From positions 62,001-126,000 of the forward strand of contig NW_025766459.1 of NCBI RefSeq assembly GCF_003918875.1: a stretch of DNA of 64,000 bases, written 5' to 3'. Below the pieces are notes generated by a model. That model saw only the letters and a list, made by a program, of their open reading frames with translations. It had not been told where the DNA came from and searched no databases. Made by a program: the position numbers and the translations under genes. The stretch comes from Haliotis rubra. Its lineage: Eukaryota. Shown here piece after piece: positions 42,675 to 64,000 of the stretch; positions within the stretch are counted from its first letter, which is position 1; each line of letters opens with the position of its first letter.

Positions 42675-44160
42675 TACTAGGCACATAAAAAACTGTGCAT
42701 ACAAAAATTTAATATGTAAATTTATCAAACCTGTGTAGACACATAAGGATTTAAACTCAGAGATTAGTGACATGTATACAACATGCATGCATGTGCCACG
42801 TTCCGTGACGTCAGTGGGTTCGTCCTTGAGACGTGCAAAACGTTGTTGCACGTGCATTCCGGGAAAGAGAAACAAAGCAAATGAATGCCACACAATACTG
42901 TCACTTTGGAAAGCTCAACCCCTGCCCTTGCGATCGTTCAAAAAATTAAACGGCTATTGAAACGCATGTCTGCACAACGTCATGAGGCCATTGGGATGGT
43001 CCGTGGGGAATGTCTCAACGACAAGTGGCTGCACATTTCCACTGCCACCGGAACACCATTTCTGCACTGATGAGACGTTACCAGAACACAAATGACGTCA
43101 TCGATCGGCCACGTTTTGGACGTCCACGTGTAACAACGCCAAGACAGGACAGATGGATAAGGGTGACCAATCTTCGCCACAGGTTTCAGACTGCAGTGAT
43201 GACTGCCCGAACCATCCCAGGACTTCGCCGTATCCACCACAACACAGTTCGACAACGTTTACGTCATCACGGGATCAGACCACGACGTCCCGCCATACGG
43301 CCTATCCTGACACAACGTCATCGACAAGCTCGCCGAATGTGGTGCCGAAATTATGTCCGCAGACCTTTATTTTCGTGGAGAAATGTTGTTTTTACATATG
43401 AGTCCAGGTTTAATATTTCCCATAGTGATGGACGTAAACGTGCCTATAGACGCGTGGGAGAACGTTATGCACAGGCCTGTGTCTTGGAGAGGAATCGCTT
43501 TGGTGGTGGTTCCGTGATGATTGGGGGTGGAATAACAGCACGCCAAAGAACTCCTTTGGTGATTGTTCAGGGCAACTTAACTGGTGTGGGCTACAGGGAT
43601 CAGATTCTTCGACCTGTGGCAATTCCTTTTCTGCAACTTCATGGCCCTGGGTTAACATTTCAACATTCCGCCCTCATACGGCAAGGGTTGCTATGGATTT
43701 CTTGCAACACCACAACGTTGACTTACTGCCTTGGCCTGCAAATTCACCGGATCTCTCCCCGATAGAGCATGTTTCGGACGAGATGGATCGACGTCTACGC
43801 CGTCTTCCTCATCCGCCAGATAACGTCCTTGACCTTGCAACAGAACTTGAGAGAATCTGGCGTGACATCCCACAAGCCTTCCCTGCACGTTTGATAGGCT
43901 CTATGCGTCGTCGATGCACTGCTGTTCTCAATGCCGATGGTGGACATACCCATTATTGAGCTTGTGACATGGTCGTTTGACCCCTGTCCCGCTTGTGGAC
44001 TCGTGACGTCATTGTGATTGACTTTTCAATTGAAATTCTCCCGACTTGTTATGGTCTCATGATCCCTCCATTCAAGTTTATATGTACCTTTGACATTGTT
44101 ATCGTACTTATCAACTGGGATAATATTTTGACAATGCACAGTTTCTTTATGTGGCTAGTA
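42675..44160 (+). mobile_element. Full-length but defective Tc1-family (DD34E-type) DNA transposon
   Basis: TIRs TACTAGGCACATAAAAAACTGTGCA / TGCACAGTTTCTTTATGTGGCTAGTA, TA TSD, internal transposase. Confidence 0.92.
42966..43959 (+). pseudogene. Tc1 transposase pseudogene
   Basis: HTH-GRPR N-terminus, first catalytic D mutated (FTYESRF), deletion/frameshift removing the QDN motif near 43665, WPANSPDLSPIEH intact, further frameshift near 43005. Confidence 0.9.
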
Positions 44161-44708: not shown

Positions 44709-47524
44709 ATGTATATCGGTGTAATACTGTTTACTGTTATGACCGTCAGTCAAGTGCTGCCCTGCGACACCGCATACAGACTCTGTAATGTCACGGATGA
44801 GGCTCATCTATCAAACTGCTCCGAGAAGAACGGGGTTGGAACATCTCTGTCTCCAGCCGACCGGAAAGTTGACCCAACACTTCCAGGACGCTCACACGAG
44901 AAAGGGACAGTGAAAACACCTTTCCCCTCAGGAGGGAATGGTACAGATGGGGCACATCGTCTTTCAGGAGGGAATGGTACAGATGGGGCACATCGTCTCT
45001 CAGGAGGGAATGATACAGATGGGGCACATCGTCGCTCAAGAGGGAATGGTACAGATGGGGCACATCGTCTCTCAGGAGGGAATGGTACAGATGGGACACA
45101 TCGTCTCTCAGGAGTGAATGGTACAGATGGGGCACATCGTCTCTCAGGAGGGAATGGTACAGATGGGACACATCGTCTCTCAGGAGGGAATGGTACAGAT
45201 GGGACACATCGTCTCTCAGGAGTGAATGGTACAGATGGGGCACATCGTCTCTCTGGAGGGAATGGTACAGATGGGACACATCGTCTCTCAGGAGGGAATG
45301 GTACAGATGGGACACATCGTCTCTCAGGAGGGAATGGTACAGATGGGACACATCGTCTCTCAGGACGGAATGGTACAGATGGGGCACATCGTCTCTCAGG
45401 AGGGAATGGTACAGATGGGACACATCGTCTCTCAGGAGGGAATGGTACAGATGGGGCACATCGTCTCTCAGGAGGGAATGATACAGATGGGACACATCGT
45501 CTCTCAGGAGGAATGGTACAGATGGGGCACATCGTCGCTCAAGAGGGAATGGTACAGATGGGACACATCGTCTCTCAGGAGGGAATGGTACAGATGGGGC
45601 ACATCGTCTCTCAGGACGGAATGGTACAGATGGGGCACATCGTCTCTCAGGACGGAATGGTACAGATGGGGCACATCGTCTCTCAGGAGGGAATGGTACA
45701 GATGGGACACATCGTCTCTCAGGAGGGAATGGTACAGATGGGACACATCGTCTCTCAGGACGGAATTGTACAGATGGGGCACATCGTCTCTCAGGAGGGA
45801 ATGGTACAGATGGGACACATCGTCGCTCAAGAGGGAATGGTACAGATGGGGCACATCGTCTCTCAGGAGGGAATTGTACAGATGGGGCACATCGTCTCTC
45901 AGGAGTGAATGGTACAGATGGGACACATCGTCTCTCAGGAGGGAATGGTACAGATGGGACACATCGTCTCTCAGGAGTGAATGGTACAGATGGGGCACAT
46001 CGTCTCTCAGGAGGGAATGGTACAGATGGGACACATCGTCTCTCAGGAGGGAATGGTACAGATGGGGCACATCGTCTCTCAGGAGGGAATGGTACAGATG
46101 GGACACATCGTCTCTCAGGAGGGAATGGTACAGATGGGGCACATCGTCTCTCAGGAGTGAATGGTACAGATGGGGCACATCGTCGCTCAAGAGGGAATGG
46201 TACAGATGGGGCACATCGTCTCTCAGGAGGGAATGGTACAGATGGGACACATCGTCTCTCTGGAGGGAATGGTACAGATGGGACACATCGTCCCTCTGGA
46301 GGGAATGGTACAGATGGGGCACATCGTCTCTCTGGAGGGAATGGTACAGATGGGGCACATCGTCTCTCAAGAGGGAATTGTACAGATGGGGCACATCGTC
46401 TCTCAGGAGGGAATTGTACAGATGGGGCACATCGTCTCTCAGGAGGGAATGGTACGGACGAGACACCGCTTCTCTCAGACACGACATATAACCGGGTTAG
46501 TGGTGTCCTCATGAAACTAAACATCCCCTTCATCGTGATGGGGACGGTCCTGAACACTATCAACATCTGCGTCTTCTGCCGAAAGTCGATGCGTTCCAGC
46601 ACCAACGCCTACCTGTTGGCTAGCAGCATCTCTCAGCTCCTGTACAGTCTCGTCATGGTCCCATACACCGTCAGGTTGGTCACGTACGGAAACACCACCA
46701 ACCTCTTCTCCATCATGTTCGGCATCTACGTTGCCAACTACGTCGCGGTGGTTCTCAGGCGATTCACCTTCATCATTGCCTGCGTTGTTTCCATGGAAAG
46801 GTTTTTGGTGACCACGACGCCGTTGAAGGCCAAGCAATACCGCTTGGTTCACTCACCTGGACAGTTCATCATGGGTGTTTCTCTTTTCTCCGTGCTCGTC
46901 CATATACACAGCCTCGTCCGCAACACCGTCATCACCAACCACAAAGATGGGATCACAACCTACAGTGTCTGCGAGACTGGTTTTTACAAGAATCACGTGT
47001 CCGTGGTCACGGCGTGGTCGACGACAGCCAGGGTGCTGGCTGTTTATCTGGCCATTACGACGGCGCTCATCTTCAATATCGTCGTTGTCATCTCCCTTCG
47101 TCGTCAGAGGCAGTTCAGAGAAAATATCACCAACGCCAGAGTGGTAGACAAGATGAAAGCGCGGGAGAAGCAGACGACAGTCACGATCCTTGTCACAAAC
47201 TGCCTGTACTTAGTGCTCTGCGTGCCCATGGTCACCAACTCCATGGCCTTTGACCTCAGCCCCGTCTACGGTTACTTTTCTCACTACTACAAGAACGTGT
47301 ACATGGTGATACAAGACTTAGGCTCCACCTGTGTCCTGCTGGGTTTGTCCGTGGACTTTTTCTCCCACATGATGCTCAGTGAGATGTACAGAGCTACATT
47401 CTTGTGTATGTTCAAGCCAAAGTGTGTTGCAATACCCTTGACACACTCGGAATACCAGCTCGAAGACTCGAAGTCCGATAACTTTAAGAGCGTTTCAAAT
47501 GTCACCTTGACCTCTCATCTGTGA
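44709..47524 (+). CDS. Intronless rhodopsin-family GPCR (FMRFamide/sex-peptide-receptor-like group) with signal peptide and ~42x 12-aa repeat ectodomain; ~938 aa after repairing one 1-nt deletion at 45510-11
   Basis: Signal-like MYIGVILFTVMTVSQVLPC. Seven hydrophobic segments in ~46500-47400 with GTVLNTINICVF..KSMRSSTNAYL (TM1/2), SMERF (DRY equivalent) and REKQTTVTIL...LC.P (TM6). ORFs 44661-45908 and 45905-47524 join if one G is restored in a repeat unit. Confidence 0.85.
44928..46460 (+). repeat. 36-bp coding minisatellite, ~42.5 copies
   Basis: Unit TCAGGAGGGAATGGTACAGATGGG(G/A)CACATCGTCTC = SGGNGTDG(A/T)HRL. Confidence 0.98.
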
Positions 47525-49594: not shown

Positions 49595-50425
49595 ATTTAC
49601 ATGACACTTTGTAGAATGTGGACTCACCGGTCCACCAGCATGTCACATGACACCTTGTAGCACGTGGTCTCACCGCTCCACCAGCATGTCACATGGCACC
49701 TTGTAGCTAATGGACTCACCGCTCCACAAGCATGTCACATAACACCTTGTAGCACGTAATCTCACCACTCAACTAGCATGCCACATGACGCCTTGTAGCA
49801 CGTGGTCTCACCCCTCAACTAGCATGTCACATGACACCTTGTAGTACGCGATCTCACCCCTCAGCTAGCATGTCACATGACACCTTGTAGCAAGTAATGT
49901 CACCACTTAACCAGCATGTCACAGGACACCTTGTAGCAAGTGATATCACCACTCAACTAGCATGCCACATGACACCTTGTACCAAGTGATCTCACCACTC
50001 AACTAGCATGTCACAGGACACCTTGTAGCAAGTGATATCACCACTCAACTAGCATGCCACATGACACCTTGTACCAAGTGATCTCACCACTCAACTAGCA
50101 TGCACATGACACCTTGTAGCACGTGATGTGACCACTCAACTAGCATGTCACATGACACCTTGTAGCACGTGATCTGACACCTGAACTAGCATGCACATGA
50201 CACCTTGTAGCACGTGATGTGACCACTCAACTAGCATGTCACTTGACACCTTGTAGCAACTGATCTCACCACTCAACGAGAATGTCACCTGACACCTTGT
50301 AATAACTGATTTGACCACTCAGCCAACATGTCACATGACTCCTTGTAGCACGTGATGTGACCACTCATCTGGCATGTCACATGACACCTTGTAGCACGTG
50401 ATGTGACCACTCATCTGGCATGTCG
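49595..50425. repeat. 45-46-bp minisatellite, ~18 copies, E-box rich
   Basis: Unit TAGCATGTCACATGACACCTTGTAGCACGTGATCTCACCACTCAAC. Confidence 0.93.
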
Positions 50426-50717
50426 CGTCAGGTTGACATCATCCGACAATTATGAGGTATCTGATTTACCCTTTATGCCCACTGTCTAGGAACTGCCCTG
50501 GTCAGTGATCAACGCTGACTATGATCATGCGTCTACGTGTATGTATGGGTTGACCGTGGTTCACGTTTGTCCTGATTACTTGCTACCGAGCACTTCCGCA
50601 CCTATACACATGTTCTATTCATGTGAAAGAAGCCATGTTGAAGCACCTGCTGTCTCGTAGTATCAGACAACCTTCCGCTGAGTGGTCGCTCCTACTCCTG
50701 GTGAAGCTGCTGGGGCC

Positions 50718-51624
50718 ATGTACATCGCTGTCGTCTGTCTGTGTCTGTTGGCCGTCGGCGTCCAGGTATTTGTAAATTGGCTTCATTCAGAAAAGACGGC
50801 CCTGGGGGCGCCACTGTCTGTGGTTCCAGGTATACGATTCTTAACGTGAGAAGATCCCGTCATTTTTTATTCGAATCGTATGCTTTCAAAGATCATTGAT
50901 GGGCTTCATTGGAGACACTCACTCATCCACTCACCAGGGCACCTTCACGCTACATGTACATAAGTGTCTAACCACTGACGTGTACACGGGTCTAACTGCT
51001 GCTTTCTCTTTTCACGCATTCGCGTAATCACGCACACTCAACCCGTGACCACCCTACTCACGCACTCATTTGACCTTGTAGGTTTCTTTAAAATGAGAAA
51101 ATATATCAAATCGAGTCATCCTGTTCCTGGTTGACATTTTATGACATAAGGGAATGGAATGTTGGGTATCCCTCTCTAACACAGTCAACCATTCAACCTC
51201 ACAACCGGCCAACCACTCAACACCATACAACTCAGCCATTCAACCGCCCAACCATTCAACCATCCAACTATTCAATCATTCAACACCCATTCACCCATCC
51301 TTGCAGAGCGCCTCTGTGACTGACCTGTCCGGTCTGAAGCAGCTCAGCCAACCCAAGACATACACGTGCACCCCCACATGTGGCGCCGGTCAGTGCTGTG
51401 TCCACTTTTACACCCCCGTCCACGGACGCCGACAGCTCCAACCCATCGACCTACCCCTGAACAACCCCTATCCCGGCATCACGACCATGTGCAAGACGAT
51501 CCCGACCTCTGGAGAGAAGTGTCTGGTCCACAATCCCGGAGAGTGGTGCGACTGTGCGGCAGGCCTCTCTTGTCGACCTAACGGCAAGACTGGACTAGAC
51601 GCCTTCTTCGGCACGTGCATCTAA
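50718..51624 (+). CDS. Secreted 10-cysteine colipase/prokineticin/Dickkopf-like fold peptide, 121 aa; exons 50718-50765 and 51307-51624
   Basis: Signal exon MYIAVVCLCLLAVGVQ|gt and phase-0 acceptor ttgcag|AGC. Mature part has the pattern C-x3-C-x4-CC-xn-C-x9-C-x8-CxC-x5-C-x14-C, with GEKC and CDCAAGLSC. Confidence 0.82.
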
Positions 51625-52436: not shown

Positions 52437-55005
52437 ATATGACCCATGGTTCACACCGATATGATCCATGTCTCACACCGATATGATCCATGTCTCACAC
52501 CGATATGAACCATGCCTCACACCGATATGAACCATGTCTCACACCGATATGAACCATGTCTCACACCGATATGATCCATGCCTCACACCGATATGATCCA
52601 TGCCTCACACCGATATGATCCATGTCTCACACCGATATGAACCATGTCTCACACCGATATGATCCATGTCTCACACCGATATGATCCATGTCTCACACCG
52701 ATATGATCCATGTCTCACACCGATATGAACCATGTCTCACACCGATATGATCCATGTCTCACACCGATATGAACCATGTCTCACACCGATATGATCCATG
52801 TCTCACACCGATATGAACCATGTCTCACACCGATATGATCCATGTCTCACACCGATATGATCCATGTCTCACACTGATATGATCCATGTCTCACACCGAT
52901 ATGATCCATGCTTTACACCGATATGATCCATGCTTTACACCGATATGAACCATGTCTCACACCGATATGAACCATGTCTCACACCGATATGATCCATGTC
53001 TCACACCGATATGATCCATGTCTCACACCGATATGAACCATGTCTCACACCGATATGAACCATGTCTCACACCGATATGATCCATGTCTCACACCGATAT
53101 GAACCATGTCTCACACCGATATGAACCATGTCTCACACCGATATGATCCATGTCTCACACCGATATGAACCATGTCTCACACCGATATGATCCATGTCTC
53201 ACACCGATATGAACCATGTCTCACACCGATATGAACCATGTCTCACACCGATATGATCCATGTCTCACACCGATATGATCCATGTCTCACACTGATATGA
53301 ACCATGTCTCACACCGATATGATCCATGTCTCACACCGATATGATCCATGTCTCACACTGATATGATCCATGTCTCACACCGATATGATCCATGTCTCAC
53401 ACCGATATGAACCATGTCTCACACCGATATGAACCATGTCTCACACCGATATGATCCATGTCTCACACCGATATGATCCATGTCTCACACCGATATGAAC
53501 CATGTCCACACCGATATGATCCATGTCTCACACCGATATGAACCATGTCTCACACCGATATGAACCATGTCTCACACCGATATGATCCATGTCTCACACC
53601 GATATGAACCATGTCTCACACCGATATGAACCATGTCTCACACCGATATGAACCATGTCTCACACCGATATGATCCATGTCTCACACCGATATGATCCAT
53701 GTCTCACACCGATATGATCCATGTCTCACACCGATATGATCCATGTCTCACACCGATATGATCCATGTCTCACACCGATATGAACCATGTCTCACACCGA
53801 TATGATCCATGTCTCACACCGATATGAACCATGTCTCACACCGATATGATCCATGTCTCACACCGATATGATCCATGTCTCACACTGATATGATCCATGT
53901 CTCACACCGATATGATCCATGCTTTACACCGATATGATCCATGCTTTACACCGATATGAACCATGTCTCACACCGATATGAACCATGTCTCACACCGATA
54001 TGATCCATGCTTTACACCGATATGATCCATGTCTCACACCGATATGAACCATGTCTCACACCGATATGAACCATGTCTCACACCGATATGATCCATGTCT
54101 CACACCGATATGATCCATGTCTCACACCGATATGATCCATGCTTTACACCGATATGAACCATGTCTCACACCGATATGAACCATGTCTCACACCGATATG
54201 ATCCATGTCTCACACCGATATGATCCATGCTTTACACCGATATGATCCATGTCTCACACCGATATGATCCATGTCTCACACCGATATGATCCATGCTTTA
54301 CACCGATATGATCCATGTCTCACACCGATATGATCCATGTCTCACACCGATATGATCCATGCTTTACACCGATATGACCCATGTCTCACACCGATATGAA
54401 CCATGTCTCACACCGATATGATCCATTCTTTACACCGATATGATCCATGTCTCACACCGATATGATCCATGTCTCACATCGGTATGATCCATGTCTCACA
54501 CTGATATGAACCATGTCTCACACCAGTATGACCCATGTCTCACACTGATATGATCCATGTCTCACACTGATATGATCCATATCTCACACCGATATGAACC
54601 ATGTCTCACACTGATATGATCCATATCTCACACCAGTATGATCCATGTCTCACACTGATATGATCCATATCTCACACCGATATGAACCATGTCTCACACC
54701 GATATGATCCATGCTTTACACCGATATGATCCATGTCTCACATTGGTATGATCCATGTCTTAGACAATATGATCCATATCTCACACTGATATGATCCATG
54801 TCTCACACCAGTATGATCCATGCTTTACACCGATATGATCCATGTCTCTCATTGGTATGATCCATGTCTTAGACAATATGATCCATATCTCACACTGATA
54901 TGATCCATGTCTCACACCTGTATGATCCATGTCTCACACTGATATGATCCATGTCTCACACTGATATGATCCATGTCTCACACTGATATGATCCATGCCT
55001 CAGAC
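52437..55005. repeat. 22-bp satellite, >110 copies
   Basis: Unit CCGATATGA(T/A)CCATGTCTCACA; degenerate units also at 52045-52150. Confidence 0.98.
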
Positions 55006-55022
55006 ATATGATAATGATCGTG

Positions 55023-57628
55023 TCACAGGCTGATGTGAGACAAAGAGAAGCTGTCCTGGGCTGTGTCCACCTGGCGGTCATACAACACGCACTGACCCGA
55101 GCTGCTCACGCCGAACTTTACACACGTGTCTTCATCCATACACTGGCGAGCACAGTCAAGGTCATACCCTCCTTCTGGGGCGGACTTCCGGTCTTGTGTA
55201 AACACTGCATGTACAGATTCGGAAAAAGTGAATCAGTTATCACTTGAATGACTGAGTGATGTATCAAACGTCACTTTTAACAGTATATCCGTTATACCAC
55301 TCCTTAATATTGGAGGGAAACACAAAACGTAAACAACATGGGCTATATCTGGTATTATAGAGACCCCGGCAACTATTTGAGTGAGTGAGTGAGTCACATC
55401 GGCAGTATTTCAGCCATATCGTGACGAGAACAATTAATTATCATTAAAGATCAATTATAATTAGAAGTTATAAAACTGTTTACGATAAACGCTAAAACTA
55501 GAGTATCACAGATAGAGATATAAAACTAGCATGTAACTTAATACTTATACTATAATGCAGGACAATTCAATATAAAACAGGGCTATAGATCACCAGCAGC
55601 TGAAGGTAGATCACCATACTAGGGACCATGGGGACTTATAATTCTTTGGCCATCTGCATGGACCCTAGACGGATGTATTACATCCCCTCAGCTGCTGGTG
55701 CTTGTAGTATGTGTATACTAGAACAACATCACACATCCTACCTACAACCTGAAGGCGAGGGATGACTCCAACACATTATAAGTTGTTCACTGGTCTCGAG
55801 GGGGACATGGGCTGATGTACCCTCGATGTTTGTTTATGTTCTCTGAGCCCGAAGGGCGAGGGGAACATAAAGAAACATCGTGAGTACATCAATCCATGGG
55901 CCCCGAGGGACCAGTGAACAACGTATTTATCTTACCGAACACCTCAATAGTAATTTGAACTGTTTGAAGCACGGGAATCGGATAATAGTATCGAGTACCT
56001 GACGATAAGACGACAAGAAAAACAAATTTAGAGTTATCTCCCCTTCCATCGATTTGCATTCGCAAAACATCGGTAATTTCCGTACATCATACGTGATTCA
56101 TTGTTATTCGAGATTAAGAATTACTACTACGAAGTACCAAATGAGTTCGGCATTCCCAGCCGGGTACATAGAAAATGGTACTCGCTTGTAAGCGGGGTAC
56201 ATTGAAAATAGTAGGAGCGCGCTCAGCCAATCAGAAAACGACATTTATGTGTGGCAAGATAGGTATATTTAAACCTCGGAGGACATGTCGTTGCAATTAA
56301 AGTGAATTTGGTTTAACCTATTCAACTTTTATTACGACATGTCGACTGAAGATGAGATGAGAGCCCATTCAAACTACACCAGTGGTGCTGACAAACCACA
56401 TATCATGATCAGGCTTAATCCAGGATTCGAACCCGCAGTTGTAAAATCCTACCTGCAGACCTGCGTCCAGTGGTCGGCGCGGTCACTGCGTGGACGTGAA
56501 GGTCACATGACAGGACACTCCCGAACAGGTCTACACACTTGGACCTGAGCTTGACGTATCGGCCCTGTACATGCCTGACGCACTGGTGCGAGACTGTGAT
56601 GTTCGGGGGAACCTGGCCGCTCTGTTCCACACAGATCTTGCTTCCGTACATCTCGTTGTCGGTGGCAGACAACCTATTGCCAACCTCCACGGTAAAGTTG
56701 CCCAGCCAAGGATCTGAATAGAAGAAATTTCTGTCTCGATCTTGCTAGTACCACATATGATCTTTATCTGAAAATACCATCTATTAAATACTGCAGTAGG
56801 AGAGGTAACACGCAGGTCAAACATGATGCCAATTTGTTTGAATACACTAAAAGTACATAAAATACACATAGAATGACTATGTAAGTGAGTGTGATTTTAC
56901 GCTGTCTTTAACAATATTTCTACACTATCACGACCGGGCATACCAGAACTTAGTTTCACGCGTTTTACAAGCATGGGGAATCGAGCCCGGGTGACAGACG
57001 AAACGGTGTATAAGGCGTTACACGAGCGCATTCACCACTAGGCTACATCCCCCTCCCCTTACATATACCATATCGCCTGAATCCAACTCCGCCATATTCG
57101 TATAATCAGGTCGTTGGGTTGAATTGTGGTTATGGCGTTCTCTTGTCACGCCGGAAACCCGGGTTCGGTTTCCTGCCGAACACAGTTAGATACAATGTGT
57201 GAAGCCCGTCTCTGGTGTCCCCTATCGTGTTATTGCTGGAATATAGCTAAAAGCTTCGTAAAACCTCACTCACTCACTGGTATAAATCCACGGACACCTG
57301 CAACACGGCACTTACTCACTCACTCACTGGTATAAATCCACGGAAACCCGCAACACGGTACTCACTGCAGCAGCTACCGGCGTTCTTCACGCTGATGCTG
57401 ACGACCTTCATTTCCTCCCCAAGGTCGAAGATCCACCATGGCGGGGAAGGTTTATACCCGTAGACGCAGGGGCCGGAGAAGAAGGCCACAATGTCACTGG
57501 CGCTGGCCACGTCGAGTAGTGGGCTGGGGTCCTTCAGCAGCCGAGACATCACAGCAGGGACGGCCTTCAGGATGCCTTCTTCCACCGAGGAGATGAACGT
57601 GGTTCCTGGAACCCAATATTTTTTGGTA
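55023..57628 (-). CDS. F-type lectin (fucolectin/F5-8 type C-like) domain + C-terminal PAN/apple-like domain protein, 5'-incomplete; exons 57628-57366, 56713-56453, 55204-55023
   Basis: Phase-consistent splicing gives ...PWWIFDLGEEMKVVSISVKNAGSCC|NPWLGNFTVEVG...ICVEQ...C...VQGRYVKL...SCDLHV... then DCARQCMDEDTCVKFGVSSSGQCVLY. No start exon found. Confidence 0.75.
55380..55760 (-). mobile_element. Non-LTR retroelement 3' fragment (same family as 14398-14654)
   Basis: Shared blocks GTCACATCGGCA..CAGCCATATCGTGACGA and GGGCTATAGATC...CACCATACTAGGG. Confidence 0.7.
55778..56265. mobile_element. Hairpin-ended non-autonomous element (Crypton-like)
   Basis: ~140-bp imperfect palindrome 55782-55922 with a GCCCGAAGGGC loop; CAGCCAATCAGAA motif at the far end; no TIR or TSD. 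Confidence 0.5.
57110..57277 (+). mobile_element. Degenerate SINE family A
   Basis: Family A consensus with (ACTC)n tail. Confidence 0.7.
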
Positions 57629-57739
57629 CTGTCAGAAAGTACAGATCATAAATAGTTTTACTACTTGAAATCTTCAGAAGATGCTTTGCAAACCTTAATA
57701 CTCCACGATATAATTTATAAAGAGCAGAAGGGAGCGAGG

Positions 57740-59239: not shown

Positions 59240-59385
59240 CTGGCTTACATCTTCTTTTTAGATAGAACAAGTATACATGGATGACAAGTTCTTTTATTCT
59301 AGAGCACGACGTTTCGATACAGGTTCCTGTATCGTTTTCAAGTAAGAATGGTACAGGGGGAGAACAGGTGATATATATACAACAA
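59240..59385 (-). mobile_element. Penelope-like LTR fragment with variant hammerhead motif
   Basis: Minus strand AC-TTGAAAAC-GATACAGG-AA-CCTGTATC-GAAACGTC-GT followed by AATAAA; same layout as the 14150, 20540 and 21555 copies. Confidence 0.5.
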
Positions 59386-59716
59386 GACTAATTAACAAGG
59401 CAAGGCGGAATAACAATGTGATGATAACAAATAAAGGGGTAACAGAGGATTACAGGGATAAACATAGAGTCCAGTGGAAGCCTTCTTCTTTTGGGGTATT
59501 CGCACGAAGTCGAATTTTTAGTTGCGGCTATTCGCGGGAAGGCGAAAAGCGGTACTCTTTGATGATTGGTGTTGTTTTTACATTGTTTGCACAAGGGATT
59601 AGGGAAGGATTATCGCCTTACCCACCTGAACATGTTGGTGAACAGTTCTCATCCTGTCATGTTGGTGAACTGTTGTTGGTGAACTTTTTTAACAACAATA
59701 ATAATACAATAATAAC

Positions 59717-60729
59717 AATGCAATTGGTGCCGTTGGTGTTCCTGCTGGTACCCGACAAGAAGCAAGTCGCCTATGAGAGAGCTCTGCGACTCGTGAAAGA
59801 CGCTGCTGAAGCAAGGGGACTTCGTTTTCAACCAGATTGTGTCCAGGTAATTGAACAACTGAATTGCCATGATATATAACTTGGTCCCATAAATTATGTT
59901 ATCTGTCGCTATAAATTATTTTCTTTAATTATGTTGTTACAGATAGACTTCGAAGTGGCAGCTAAGAATGCCGTGGAGGTTGTTTTCCCGGGTATAGAGT
60001 GGAAAGGTTGTTTTTTCCACTTTACCCAGTGCATATGGAGGAAGACGCAACAAGTTGGGCTGCAGGTTGAGTACAGCAACAACCCCGACGTCAACCACTT
60101 CGTCAGACTCTGTGCTGTATTGCCTCTTGTGCCATTGGCTGATGTAAGTAGTTTTATCTCGATATATCTTCTAGTAATAGCATTATAATACACTGTATTA
60201 TTCACATTCTCATACGTATTGTAAATAATGACGTTTTATTACATTACAAGGTCGTTTTTCTTATACCATTGTTTTTTGTTTTAGGTTGAAGACGTATGGC
60301 TCCAAACCCTAGCTGATATGCCGCCAGATGACCCGATGTCATCAATTGGCCGACTACGTCACCACCACCTGGATCGAAGGTAGTCTCCCGATGACATCAT
60401 GGAACCATTACCTGACCCTCGGCCCAAGAACCAACAACAATTTGGAGGGTTGGCATGGGCGAGTTAAGAAACTTATCGGGAAAGCCCATCCTAATGTATT
60501 CGAGCTGATTCGCTTCTTGTTGGATGAACATAAGACAACAGAAGTGCACTTGGTTCAGTACATGGCAGGACAACGCCTCCCACCCAGAAAGAAACGGTAC
60601 CAGGACCTGCAAAGAAAGCTGGATGACCTGAACACCAGGCTGGTTCCCAAGACCTCGCCGTCTACGCTGTCAGAGCATCTTATGCTCTTAAACTTGCTTA
60701 AATATTGTGATTTGTACATTGTTAAATGA
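59717..60729 (+). pseudogene. Intron-containing MULE (Mutator) transposase fragment, 5'-truncated
   Basis: PLVFLL.PDK....Y, |IDFE.A..NA...VFP....GCFFHF.Q.IWR and RTNNNLEGWH..HPN motifs; GT-AG introns 59847-59942 and 60144-60284; 1-nt frameshift near 60333. Confidence 0.88.
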
Positions 60730-61809: not shown

Positions 61810-62773
61810 AATTTGGTGATAACTGTACTGTGTTTGACGAATTGGGGGCGTATACCGGTGGTTATATAGCCGCAAAGTTAGTTATATCGGTTTGCTTTTA
61901 TTTCTATCGGTTCCAGGCATTATCGACCGATACTTAAAGTAAAAGCTAACATCAAATGGTGTTTAAGACTTTCAGATGACTTAAACTTCAGCAGTGTTTA
62001 ATTATTTTCCTTGTCCATTTTGAAATACGTAATTCCATTACTTTTCGTGGCCAGTTAATTCTTCCACAAAATACGTCCACATATCATCAAAAAAACATAC
62101 ACATTAATCATGTATTTAAAGTAGGGCTTCCAGTAATTCTTTTCGGCATTCATATCTTCCGTATGCCCCATTTTTTTATTCGTGAAATAAAAGAAAGTTT
62201 CAACGAAGCTGTGGGAATTAATGCCCTGATGTGATCGAGTCTCTTTGCACACAAAACAGTTCAGGTTTCTCCATAATATACATTCACTGAAATAATGTTT
62301 CAATGGGAAAGCGACCAGACGTATATCAAATCAATAAAAATGAAGATTACTAAATAGAGATAAGTGATCTATATTTGAAGATTTCACACGAAACACGTAA
62401 AACATTCCCGATGACCTAATATATAGATATACGCCAGAACACATTTGTAACGCGAATGTACAGAGACACTGTTCAAGAACACCTGTTTTATTCCTGGCAG
62501 TTATATCATTTACAAGTGAAAATAAGTACTGCATTTTGAACAAAACATCAATCAAGTGATACTGTTAATAATTAATGCAACCCTCTTCTTTCATCAGTAA
62601 TAGCAGTAATTACTTTCATAAAGTAACAACACACTTTAAATGCTATGAATGAACAATATTTCATATGCAGATAAAATACAAGTTTATAATTGGAATGCCG
62701 CGACATGTATGTCTTTTTACTGTACTGCAATCTGCCTGTCCATCATTCTAGATTTAGGTCAAAATTGCAGCTG

Positions 62774-64000
62774 ATGAACCGTCGTAAAGTAAGTAAAGAA
62801 AAGTATCTCCAATCAACTTTTGATCATGCAAGTTTCTCTTGTCAGACAAGGGTGTTATCGTTTTCAAAGGCATCAAGAATTCCTAAAAAAAATTCCTAAA
62901 AACAACATGTTTGATACATTGCACAATAAATACGATGGAACAAAATGTGGTCACAACACCGTTTTACCGGAAACAGAGGAAAACCGTCTGGCCGACTGGG
63001 TGCTGGACATGTCAAGAATCGGGTACCAGGGTAGAACTTTTGACTACTGTGAAAAGCATTCTGGACGTGGATAATCGTGTCAATCCGTTTAAAAACAATA
63101 AACCAGGAAATGATTGGTTTTATGGCTTCTTAAAGCGACATCCCAGCATTTCAGTCAGGACACCGCTTCAATTGGGGAAGGAGCGGGCTATCGTAACATT
63201 GTCGGCTGGCATCAAAATGTCCTTGATTATGTAAACAATCATGTACAGGACCCCACTGTCATGCTTGATCCGTCTCGAATATATAACGCAGATGAATCGG
63301 GGTTTCCTCTCTGCCCGAGGAGTGGGAAAGTATTATCTGTGAGGGGTACACCTATTGTCTATCAGTTTGGTTCAAGTGACAAGACCCAAATCACTGTCAT
63401 GGCTTGTATGAGTGCCAGTGGGCATTATATTCCCCCTATGTTGGTATTCCCTGGCAAGCGGTTTGCTTACAATGTCTTGGAGGGTTTTGAGGGAGCTGCG
63501 ATGGGACGATCGGACAATGGTTGGATGGACGGTGTACTCTTTGTTGACTGGTTGAGGGATGTGTTCAGTCCTTCAGTCAAGCATAAAGGAGTACAATTTC
63601 CTGTCCTGTTGTTTGTTGATGGACAGAAATGTGCAAAAAGAATGATGTAATTCTTTACTGTTTGTAAGAACATGCATCTCACTTGATGCAACCTTTGGAC
63701 CTTCGCCTATTCAGCTCGCTCAAAGAGAATTGGAAGCAAGCCGTTCGTCAGTATCAGATGGAACATGTTGGGGATTTCGTTACCAAGCAAACTTTTGCCC
63801 GAGTTTTTAAATCTGCATGAGTGAAATCAACAACTGTTGCCATTGCCATTCATGGCTTCAGAGATGCAGGTCTTTTCCTCCTGAATGAAGACGTAGTCCT
63901 GAATACACATAAGTTGATCCCCAGCACCATATTCTGTTCCGATAAACCGGAAAGTTCTCATCGTTCTCTGCCAGTAACAGATTCATTCCTCAAGCCTCTA
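62774..64000 (+). pseudogene. pogo/Tigger-superfamily (HTH_psq + CENP-B HTH + DDE_1) transposase pseudogene
   Basis: EENRLADW, PGNDWFYGFLKRHP, IYNADESGF, ITVMACMSASG...PP, GWMD, LLFVDG and H..QPLD motifs spread across several frames, with deletions and stops. Confidence 0.9.

Follow-up and report, generated by a model that had tools for sequence, protein, structure and literature searches.

A prokineticin-like precursor gene of the abalone Haliotis rubra with a conserved dibasic site in the Cys4-Cys5 loop and a predicted two-chain product

The LOC124278738 locus and its product

The window analysed here, a stretch of 64,000 nucleotides from contig NW_025766459.1 of Haliotis rubra (positions 62,001 to 126,000), carries on its forward strand a two-exon gene for a small cysteine-rich protein (Table 1). 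Reading the sequence from the ATG at 50718, which is preceded by an in-frame stop 12 codons further 5', one finds 16 codons up to a GT donor at 50766 and an AG acceptor that ends at 51306. The spliced product is 100% identical to NCBI entry XP_046570460.1 (H. rubra LOC124278738, 121 amino acids), which is annotated as uncharacterised and nothing more. The 541 intron bases, with their GT..AG ends, are missing from a contig of run X6 (coded organism A), and X3 contigs reach into parts of the same intron; no listed run is recorded as RNA, and the spliced X6 contig is the sole sign of transcription of this gene. Seven of the nine listed coding differences between LOC124278738 and coded organism A are synonymous, a count that stands against approximately 89 synonymous and 274 non-synonymous sites. 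The gene, found as one copy in the H. rubra genome (G000), is thus intact, undergoes splicing in coded organism A and shows purifying selection. No AATAAA or ATTAAA signal was found in the window between 51621 and 53000.

The surroundings of the gene are mixed, with minisatellites on both of its sides. A rhodopsin-type GPCR frame, whose first part is a long tandem repeat with many N-G-T motifs, lies 3.2 kb upstream of the peptide gene on the same strand and has no cover by contigs of runs X1, X2 or X6. Because this receptor family has at least 30 genome matches, we do not read the proximity of the two genes as a sign that they encode a ligand and its receptor. The list is completed by three transposase remnants and by a fucolectin/F5-F8 type C domain gene, present as exon-like frames with weak Pfam matches below cut-off.

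Table 1. Features of the LOC124278738 gene, its predicted chains and neighbouring elements (window positions)
Feature	Position	Strand	Description and basis
5' untranslated sequence	50665..50717	+	spliced X6 contig begins at 50665
Coding exon 1	50718..50765	+	residues 1-16, hydrophobic and signal-peptide-like by hydropathy; equal to residues 1-16 of XP_046570460.1
Intron	50766..51306	+	phase 0, GT-AG, 541 bases; exactly skipped by the X6 contig
Coding exon 2 with stop	51307..51624	+	residues 17-121, entire 10-Cys domain
Predicted A chain	51310..51423	+	residues 18-55, Cys1-Cys4, predicted C-terminal His-amide; from the site and the signal-peptide rule
Gly-Arg-Arg	51424..51432	+	amide-donor Gly and dibasic convertase-type site; from the sequence, in 4/4 Haliotis species
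Predicted B chain	51433..51621	+	residues 59-121, Cys5-Cys10, N-terminal Gln (predicted pyroglutamate)
GPCR open frame	45482..47521	+	7TM part from ~46499; Pfam 7tm_1, 36.8 bits
Upstream minisatellite	49620..50430		~46-base unit
Downstream minisatellite	52450..54050		22-base unit
Fucolectin/F5-F8 type C frames	56418..57645	-	exon-like
Transposase remnant	42986..43762	+	Tc1-like and DDE_1 (together with 62887..63647)
Transposase remnant	59346..60726	+	MULE-like by eye, no Pfam match
Transposase remnant	62887..63647	+

The precursor begins with a hydrophobic segment (7-residue Kyte-Doolittle mean up to 3.5), which from hydropathy we judge to be a signal peptide, probably removed after Ser17 or Ser19. 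It contains ten cysteines (residues 37, 41, 46, 47, 78, 88, 97, 99, 105 and 120) in the order C-C-CC-C-C-CxC-C-C. An initial sequence-only reading of this DNA had recognised the colipase/prokineticin/MIT spacing and the missing AVIT motif, and both observations extend to the relatives: all ten cysteines are invariant over 20 aligned rows, and AVITGA is missing from LOC124278738 and from every aligned homologue. The same reading had proposed a colipase/prokineticin-type fold, and this proposal agrees with the AlphaFold2 model built on the homologue alignment (mean pLDDT 80, pTM 0.60) and with the structures that the model resembles. The wide structural search placed Dkk1 CRD2 first (Z 5.7, rmsd 3.6, 59 aligned residues), followed by Bv8 (Z 5.3), a spider MIT-like peptide (5.0) and colipase (4.1), all of these Z-scores being middling and below 8. 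Foldseek ranked colipase first at E 0.04, within the same fold group and with no match below E 0.001.

The outcome of the HMM check recommended by that reading was divided. On the one hand, no Pfam family exceeded its cut-off with LOC124278738, Colipase and Prokineticin (PF06607) not even being listed; the best match, MIT_LIKE_ACTX (PF17556), gave 17.5-18.1 bits over 26 residues and did not reach the 27.5-bit cut-off, and PF06607 matched one of 16 homologues (E 0.019). On the other hand, a profile search did match Dkk2, Bv8, CART and MIT1, at E 0.006-0.24. Neighbours in the ESM Atlas, taken as leads only at scores of 0.90 or less, include molluscan clusters in which 18-20% of the members carry Colipase families. 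The predicted fold is that of the colipase/Dickkopf/prokineticin group, a two-subdomain beta-finger; the scores are middling, mutually consistent and in keeping with the cysteine pattern. A search of the PDB with the single sequence returned one match that was judged to be chance, and two other identities were rejected: Prohormone-3/ITG-like precursors have 12-16 cysteines in another layout, and the 121-residue product has one domain, not the CRD1 and CRD2 of a Dickkopf.

A basic site in the Cys4-Cys5 loop

The Gly-Arg-Arg that had been noticed between Cys4 and Cys5 occupies residues 56-58, exactly where the confidence of the model falls. Together with the following Gln it forms the sequence G56-R57-R58-Q59 (nucleotides 51424-51435), residues 9-12 of a 30-residue loop in which Arg57 and Arg58 are the only basic residues. 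Since predicted strands (model residues 12-18 and 41-47) bracket this loop and pLDDT drops below 50 starting at Gly56, the site is probably exposed. When the non-Cys residues of the domain were shuffled 200,000 times, the loop acquired [KR]R in 7.7% of cases, G[KR]R in 1.0% and G[KR]RQ in 0.04%; the single sequence is therefore modest evidence, and it is conservation that carries the case.

Relatives were retrieved from four Haliotis species, Patella, Lottia, Littorina, Batillaria, Babylonia, scallop, oysters and others, and six long multi-repeat proteins were excluded from the 18 homologue matches. The pair [KR]R is present in the Cys4-Cys5 loop of all 19 domains compared, where 5000 shuffles gave a mean of 3.3 and never more than 10, a comparison that yields no p-value because the rows are related. 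Lack of conservation among homologues had been named beforehand as the result that would speak against cleavage; instead, in all but one of the 24 molluscan domains a basic run first starts between loop positions 7 and 12, with loop lengths ranging from 20 to 37 residues and non-Cys identity to LOC124278738 going down to 13-30%. Arg closes each of the 29 basic runs in this set, and Pro never comes next; the control for the former count is weak, as 6/7 basic runs of other loops likewise end in Arg. Homologue P0012 has G-R-M-R at the site position and not a dibasic pair.

Judged from these sequences, the dibasic site is the constant element within the subfamily and the putative amide and pyroglutamate caps are the variable ones. 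The residue before the site is Gly in eight and Ser in nine of the 18 subfamily rows (the latter in limpets and caenogastropods), and the residue after it is Gln in six and Glu in two. Given that Ser replaces Gly in half of the rows, amidation cannot be essential family-wide. The amidation and pyroglutamate signals of the sequence-only reading thus stand for LOC124278738, but not as a property of the family.

Some loops contain more than one site. A second basic site near Cys5 occurs in 5/24 domains (both oysters, scallop, one Littorina and P0006), and in the scallop and oyster proteins P0011, P0020 and P0029 the two sites frame a piece of about 10 residues. In these bivalve loops the framed piece is C-peptide-like, in a B-C-A layout that resembles proinsulin. 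UniRef names the Lottia and scallop homologues 'Prokineticin domain-containing protein'. The database model of the Batillaria homologue P0010 has an M14 carboxypeptidase fragment fused to the domain, probably a gene-prediction merge. The tree, which left 10/21 inner branches open and placed paralogue L016 on a long branch, served only to delimit groups.

H. rubra itself has at least four further intact paralogue types, all with a basic site in this loop: the near-identical tandem copies L002/L003 (H-K-R-F), L014 (G-K-K-R-M), L016 on contig C1236 (K-K-R-Q) and L019 on C458 (G-R-R-R-Q), so that five types in this species, counting the GRR-Q of LOC124278738, carry the site. The aligned paralogues share 13-20% non-Cys identity with LOC124278738. 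L002 passes the PF06607 cut-off (24.8 vs 21.6 bits), searches for paralogues with PF17556 and PF02740 gave only noise, and one paralogue bears the automatic NCBI name 'toxin CSTX-20-like'. L002, L003 and L014 are clustered on C2097 of G000 (803167-818824), and their genes encode a mucin-like tail rich in Thr, Met and Pro. Two copies there, some 6 kb apart and 92-98% identical over about 3 kb, represent a recent duplication or an assembly duplicate. On C1236 lie L016/L017 and L018/L020, together with a broken L016 copy with a stop and a frame change. Candidates L004-L007, L015, L021 and L023 were dropped as they have no 10-Cys frame.

Beyond these relatives, the site was tallied visually across parts 56-57 of 400 of supplement file 3 of the De Oliveira 2019 catalogue (PMC6425005). 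In that portion, the Cys4-Cys5 loop contains [KR]R in 34 of 48 precursors from spiralians, to which molluscs contribute 25 (out of 29), one entry with K-R immediately before Cys5 being scored as absent. Rotifer, bryozoan, entoproct, phoronid and brachiopod entries there also have it; none of the 17 arthropod and 11 chordate entries does. Gly stands in front of 28 of the 34 sites, and five have the full G-[KR]-R-Q. The Phe-Ile/Leu-Phe that follows the KR site in the C2097 cluster recurs in limpet, chiton and bivalve entries of the catalogue portion. The part of that supplement that was searched contains neither of two subfamily motifs. Among the sequences listed in part 24 of 387 of the Thiel 2021 supplement (PMC8557429), the site is present in 4/4 brachiopod, 3/6 phoronid and 0/7 nemertean proteins. 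Platynereis has no site. On these lists, the loop motif is an old and widespread spiralian trait with losses or independent gains. The comparison of sequences identifies the basic loop site as a family trait of spiralian prokineticin-like proteins rather than an abalone-specific oddity; LOC124278738 is an ordinary member of the group that shows the full signature of Gly, dibasic pair and Gln cleanly. The catalogue portion also contains Lingula g23757, with many short amidated-peptide repeats and a C-terminal prokineticin-like domain free of the loop site, and Platynereis has a comparable layout.

Predicted maturation and competing explanations

We consider it probable, from the sequences and the model, that the product of LOC124278738, a spiralian prokineticin-like protein, is secreted and is split by a convertase into two chains held together by two disulfides. 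The chain would fold with five disulfides once the signal peptide had been removed. Cleavage behind Arg58 by a convertase of the PC1/3 or PC2 type would follow, then removal of both Arg residues by carboxypeptidase E and conversion of Gly56 by PAM into an amide on His55, and the freed Gln59 would cyclise to pyroglutamate. The order in which convertase, carboxypeptidase and PAM act is well established. PMC6832493 likewise reports amidation after carboxypeptidase trimming, and it gives the disulfide pairing of colipase and MIT1 (C1-C4, C2-C5, C3-C7, C6-C9, C8-C10). Given this pairing, a cut in the Cys4-Cys5 loop would leave an A chain of 38 and a B chain of 63 residues connected by C2-C5 and C3-C7, in line with the earlier expectation that the chains would stay joined. 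The predicted mass of the cut product is ~10,718 Da, 369 Da below the ~11,087 Da of the uncut protein (both oxidised and counted from residue 18). Counted from residue 20, the corresponding predicted masses are ~10,560 and ~10,929 Da; the amidated A chain would have ~4,040 Da (or ~3,882 Da with the later start) and the pyroglutamyl B chain ~6,688 Da, all monoisotopic. What is found here is what one would look for in a two-chain hormone, namely a conserved, predicted-exposed dibasic site between chain-linking cysteines. Because the site has no Arg at P4, furin is unlikely, PC1/3 or PC2 would fit better, and the precursor would need a cell with regulated-pathway convertases; PC2 expression is reported for neurosecretory cells of abalone ganglia (PMC7144994).

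As to function, a hormone or cytokine-like signal is favoured because the gene is single-copy and conserved. Speculatively, it might act via some receptor distinct from that of the vertebrate prokineticins, with an active surface that is formed or unmasked by the two capped ends which cleavage would create on the first finger. A role in the gut is also conceivable, since the text of PMC8398477 places the oyster prokineticin-like transcripts mainly in the digestive gland and not in ganglia. For an apple-snail relative, a haematopoietic role is doubted in a review (PMC9178244).

The cleaved form has three competitors. An uncut single secreted chain, whose basic loop cluster would serve as a patch that binds heparan sulphate, lipid or an acidic receptor, strikes us as unlikely, even if several observations would suit it. 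In Dkk, the Cys4-Cys5 loop binds LRP6. The same loop of MIT1 has an exposed Trp24 (text of PMC8859281), arthropod and chordate members work uncut and have the site in 0/28 entries of the catalogue portion, and the available text on a spiralian 'new signature' (PMC11521371) is silent on cleavage. Moreover, our look-ups of peptide motifs gave no sign of it: no paper contained any of six processed-peptide motifs (taken from LOC124278738, from its homologues in oyster and scallop and from a paralogue), five looked up in the oyster supplement were absent, and prokineticin is unmentioned in the scallop peptidomics paper. However, charge as such requires neither a fixed position nor Arg as the last residue, nor a Gly that precedes the site and a Gln, Ser, Ala or Phe that comes next, and yet the counted catalogue sites so often have the preceding Gly. 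The length of the loop and its low model confidence from Gly on would suit an accessible cut site, and a patch would have to manage with the two Arg of LOC124278738 as its only basic residues.

Cleavage of a different kind would be expected if the protein were a colipase-like lipase cofactor or effector of the gut, nicked extracellularly in the loop by a trypsin-like enzyme and left unamidated, much as procolipase is activated by trypsin. The top rank of colipase in Foldseek (though at E 0.04), the Colipase families in the molluscan ESM Atlas clusters and the digestive-gland expression of the oyster relatives (text of PMC8398477) lean in this direction. Nevertheless, the Gly before and the Gln after the site point to the secretory-granule enzymes PAM and glutaminyl cyclase, colipase trails Dkk and Bv8 in the wide search and the Colipase Pfam model is not matched, all of which makes this reading improbable. 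We regard as very improbable a defence, mucus or pheromone peptide of the MIT-like toxin type, made of two chains as in the heterodimeric knottins of spiders. Abalone are non-venomous grazers, relatives occur in limpets, snails, scallop and oysters, and the one genome copy with its mostly synonymous differences gives the pattern of a conserved signal rather than of a fast-evolving toxin. These points are set against the best, sub-threshold Pfam match being MIT_LIKE_ACTX, the automatic toxin name of one paralogue and the venom loop cleavage known for two-chain spider knottins (text of PMC6832493).

If convertase cleavage into two chains is extended from LOC124278738 to the family, our confidence decreases considerably. 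It is possible, but in our opinion somewhat doubtful, that the majority of prokineticin-like proteins of the Spiralia, those of rotifers, bryozoans, brachiopods and molluscs included, are hormones of two chains in the style of insulin, built on a colipase fold, and that the cut ends, one of them amidated, replace the lost AVIT. Equally tentatively, the new N-terminus would be pyroglutamate or, in one conserved subfamily, Phe-Ile-Phe, and some bivalve members might, as a suggestion of the same modest weight, additionally release a C-peptide. Under this family-wide reading, the family would be orphan because the single-chain form had been assumed to be the ligand.

Comparison with known systems

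Spiralian prokineticin-like precursors have already been catalogued (PMC6425005; PMC8398477, with Cragi-prokineticin 1-5; PMC8557429; PMC3890597), and the listed sequences share with LOC124278738 a signal peptide, the 10-Cys colipase-type spacing, the missing AVITGA and (G)KR/RR in the Cys4-Cys5 loop. LOC124278738 belongs to this group, and not to the AVIT family, the astakines or the Dickkopfs. Its own subfamily, a divergent one of gastropods and bivalves, differs from other spiralian precursors in a longer loop of 26-37 residues, in a short Cys6-Cys7 loop and in an E-x-C-x-C motif, and LOC124278738 stays short of the Pfam Prokineticin model.

Vertebrate prokineticins and other AVIT proteins (PK1, PK2, Bv8 with PDB 2kra, MIT1 with PDB 1imt) have the same Cys framework and predicted fold, but unlike LOC124278738 the vertebrate prokineticins carry AVITGA and have a short Cys4-Cys5 loop with no dibasic site. 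The cut known for the long PK2 isoform lies in another loop, after Cys6. AVITGA is essential for activation of prokineticin receptors (PMC8859281), and these receptors are reported to have been lost in protostomes (PMC8557429). The arthropod astakines are likewise AVIT-less secreted prokineticin domains; as listed, they have a short loop with a single-Arg motif of the R-Y-S type, in contrast to the 30-residue loop and GRRQ of LOC124278738. Dickkopf CRD2 (PDB 3s2k, 2jtk) and colipase (PDB 1lpb, 1eth) are the best structural or profile matches, but both are single chains, and LOC124278738 has neither the CRD1 and linker of the former nor a match to the Pfam model of the latter.

The text of the literature searched yielded no description of cleavage in the Cys4-Cys5 loop. 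Schiffer 2024 (PMC11521371) refers to a 'new signature' in Spiralia in Fig. 8a that its text, as far as available, does not spell out and that may be the loop motif; similarly, Fig. 2 and S1 of PMC8398477 may already mark the sites. The family is known, and its maturation route is likely undescribed. Thiel et al. call it exceptional (PMC8557429) that the prokineticin/astakine-like peptides of protostomes, which are ancient, have no known GPCR. If spiralian members were indeed cut, amidated and capped, a recombinant protein of one chain would not be the right ligand, and the two-chain form would be the one to use in receptor screens and functional tests.

Insulin folds, is cut in an internal loop and keeps its chains joined by disulfides. 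If our reading of LOC124278738 is true, the colipase fold would join the short list of scaffolds that mature in this manner. Along with insulin and relaxin, the spider knottins CsTx-13 and omega-agatoxin-1A offer the same logic of folding first, cutting a loop and retaining the chains by disulfides (text of PMC6832493); the folds, however, are unrelated, and the spider spacers are marked by PQM/iPQM motifs. Compared with insulin, the abalone precursor has a single site and no excised C-peptide, although the oyster and scallop members contain two sites.
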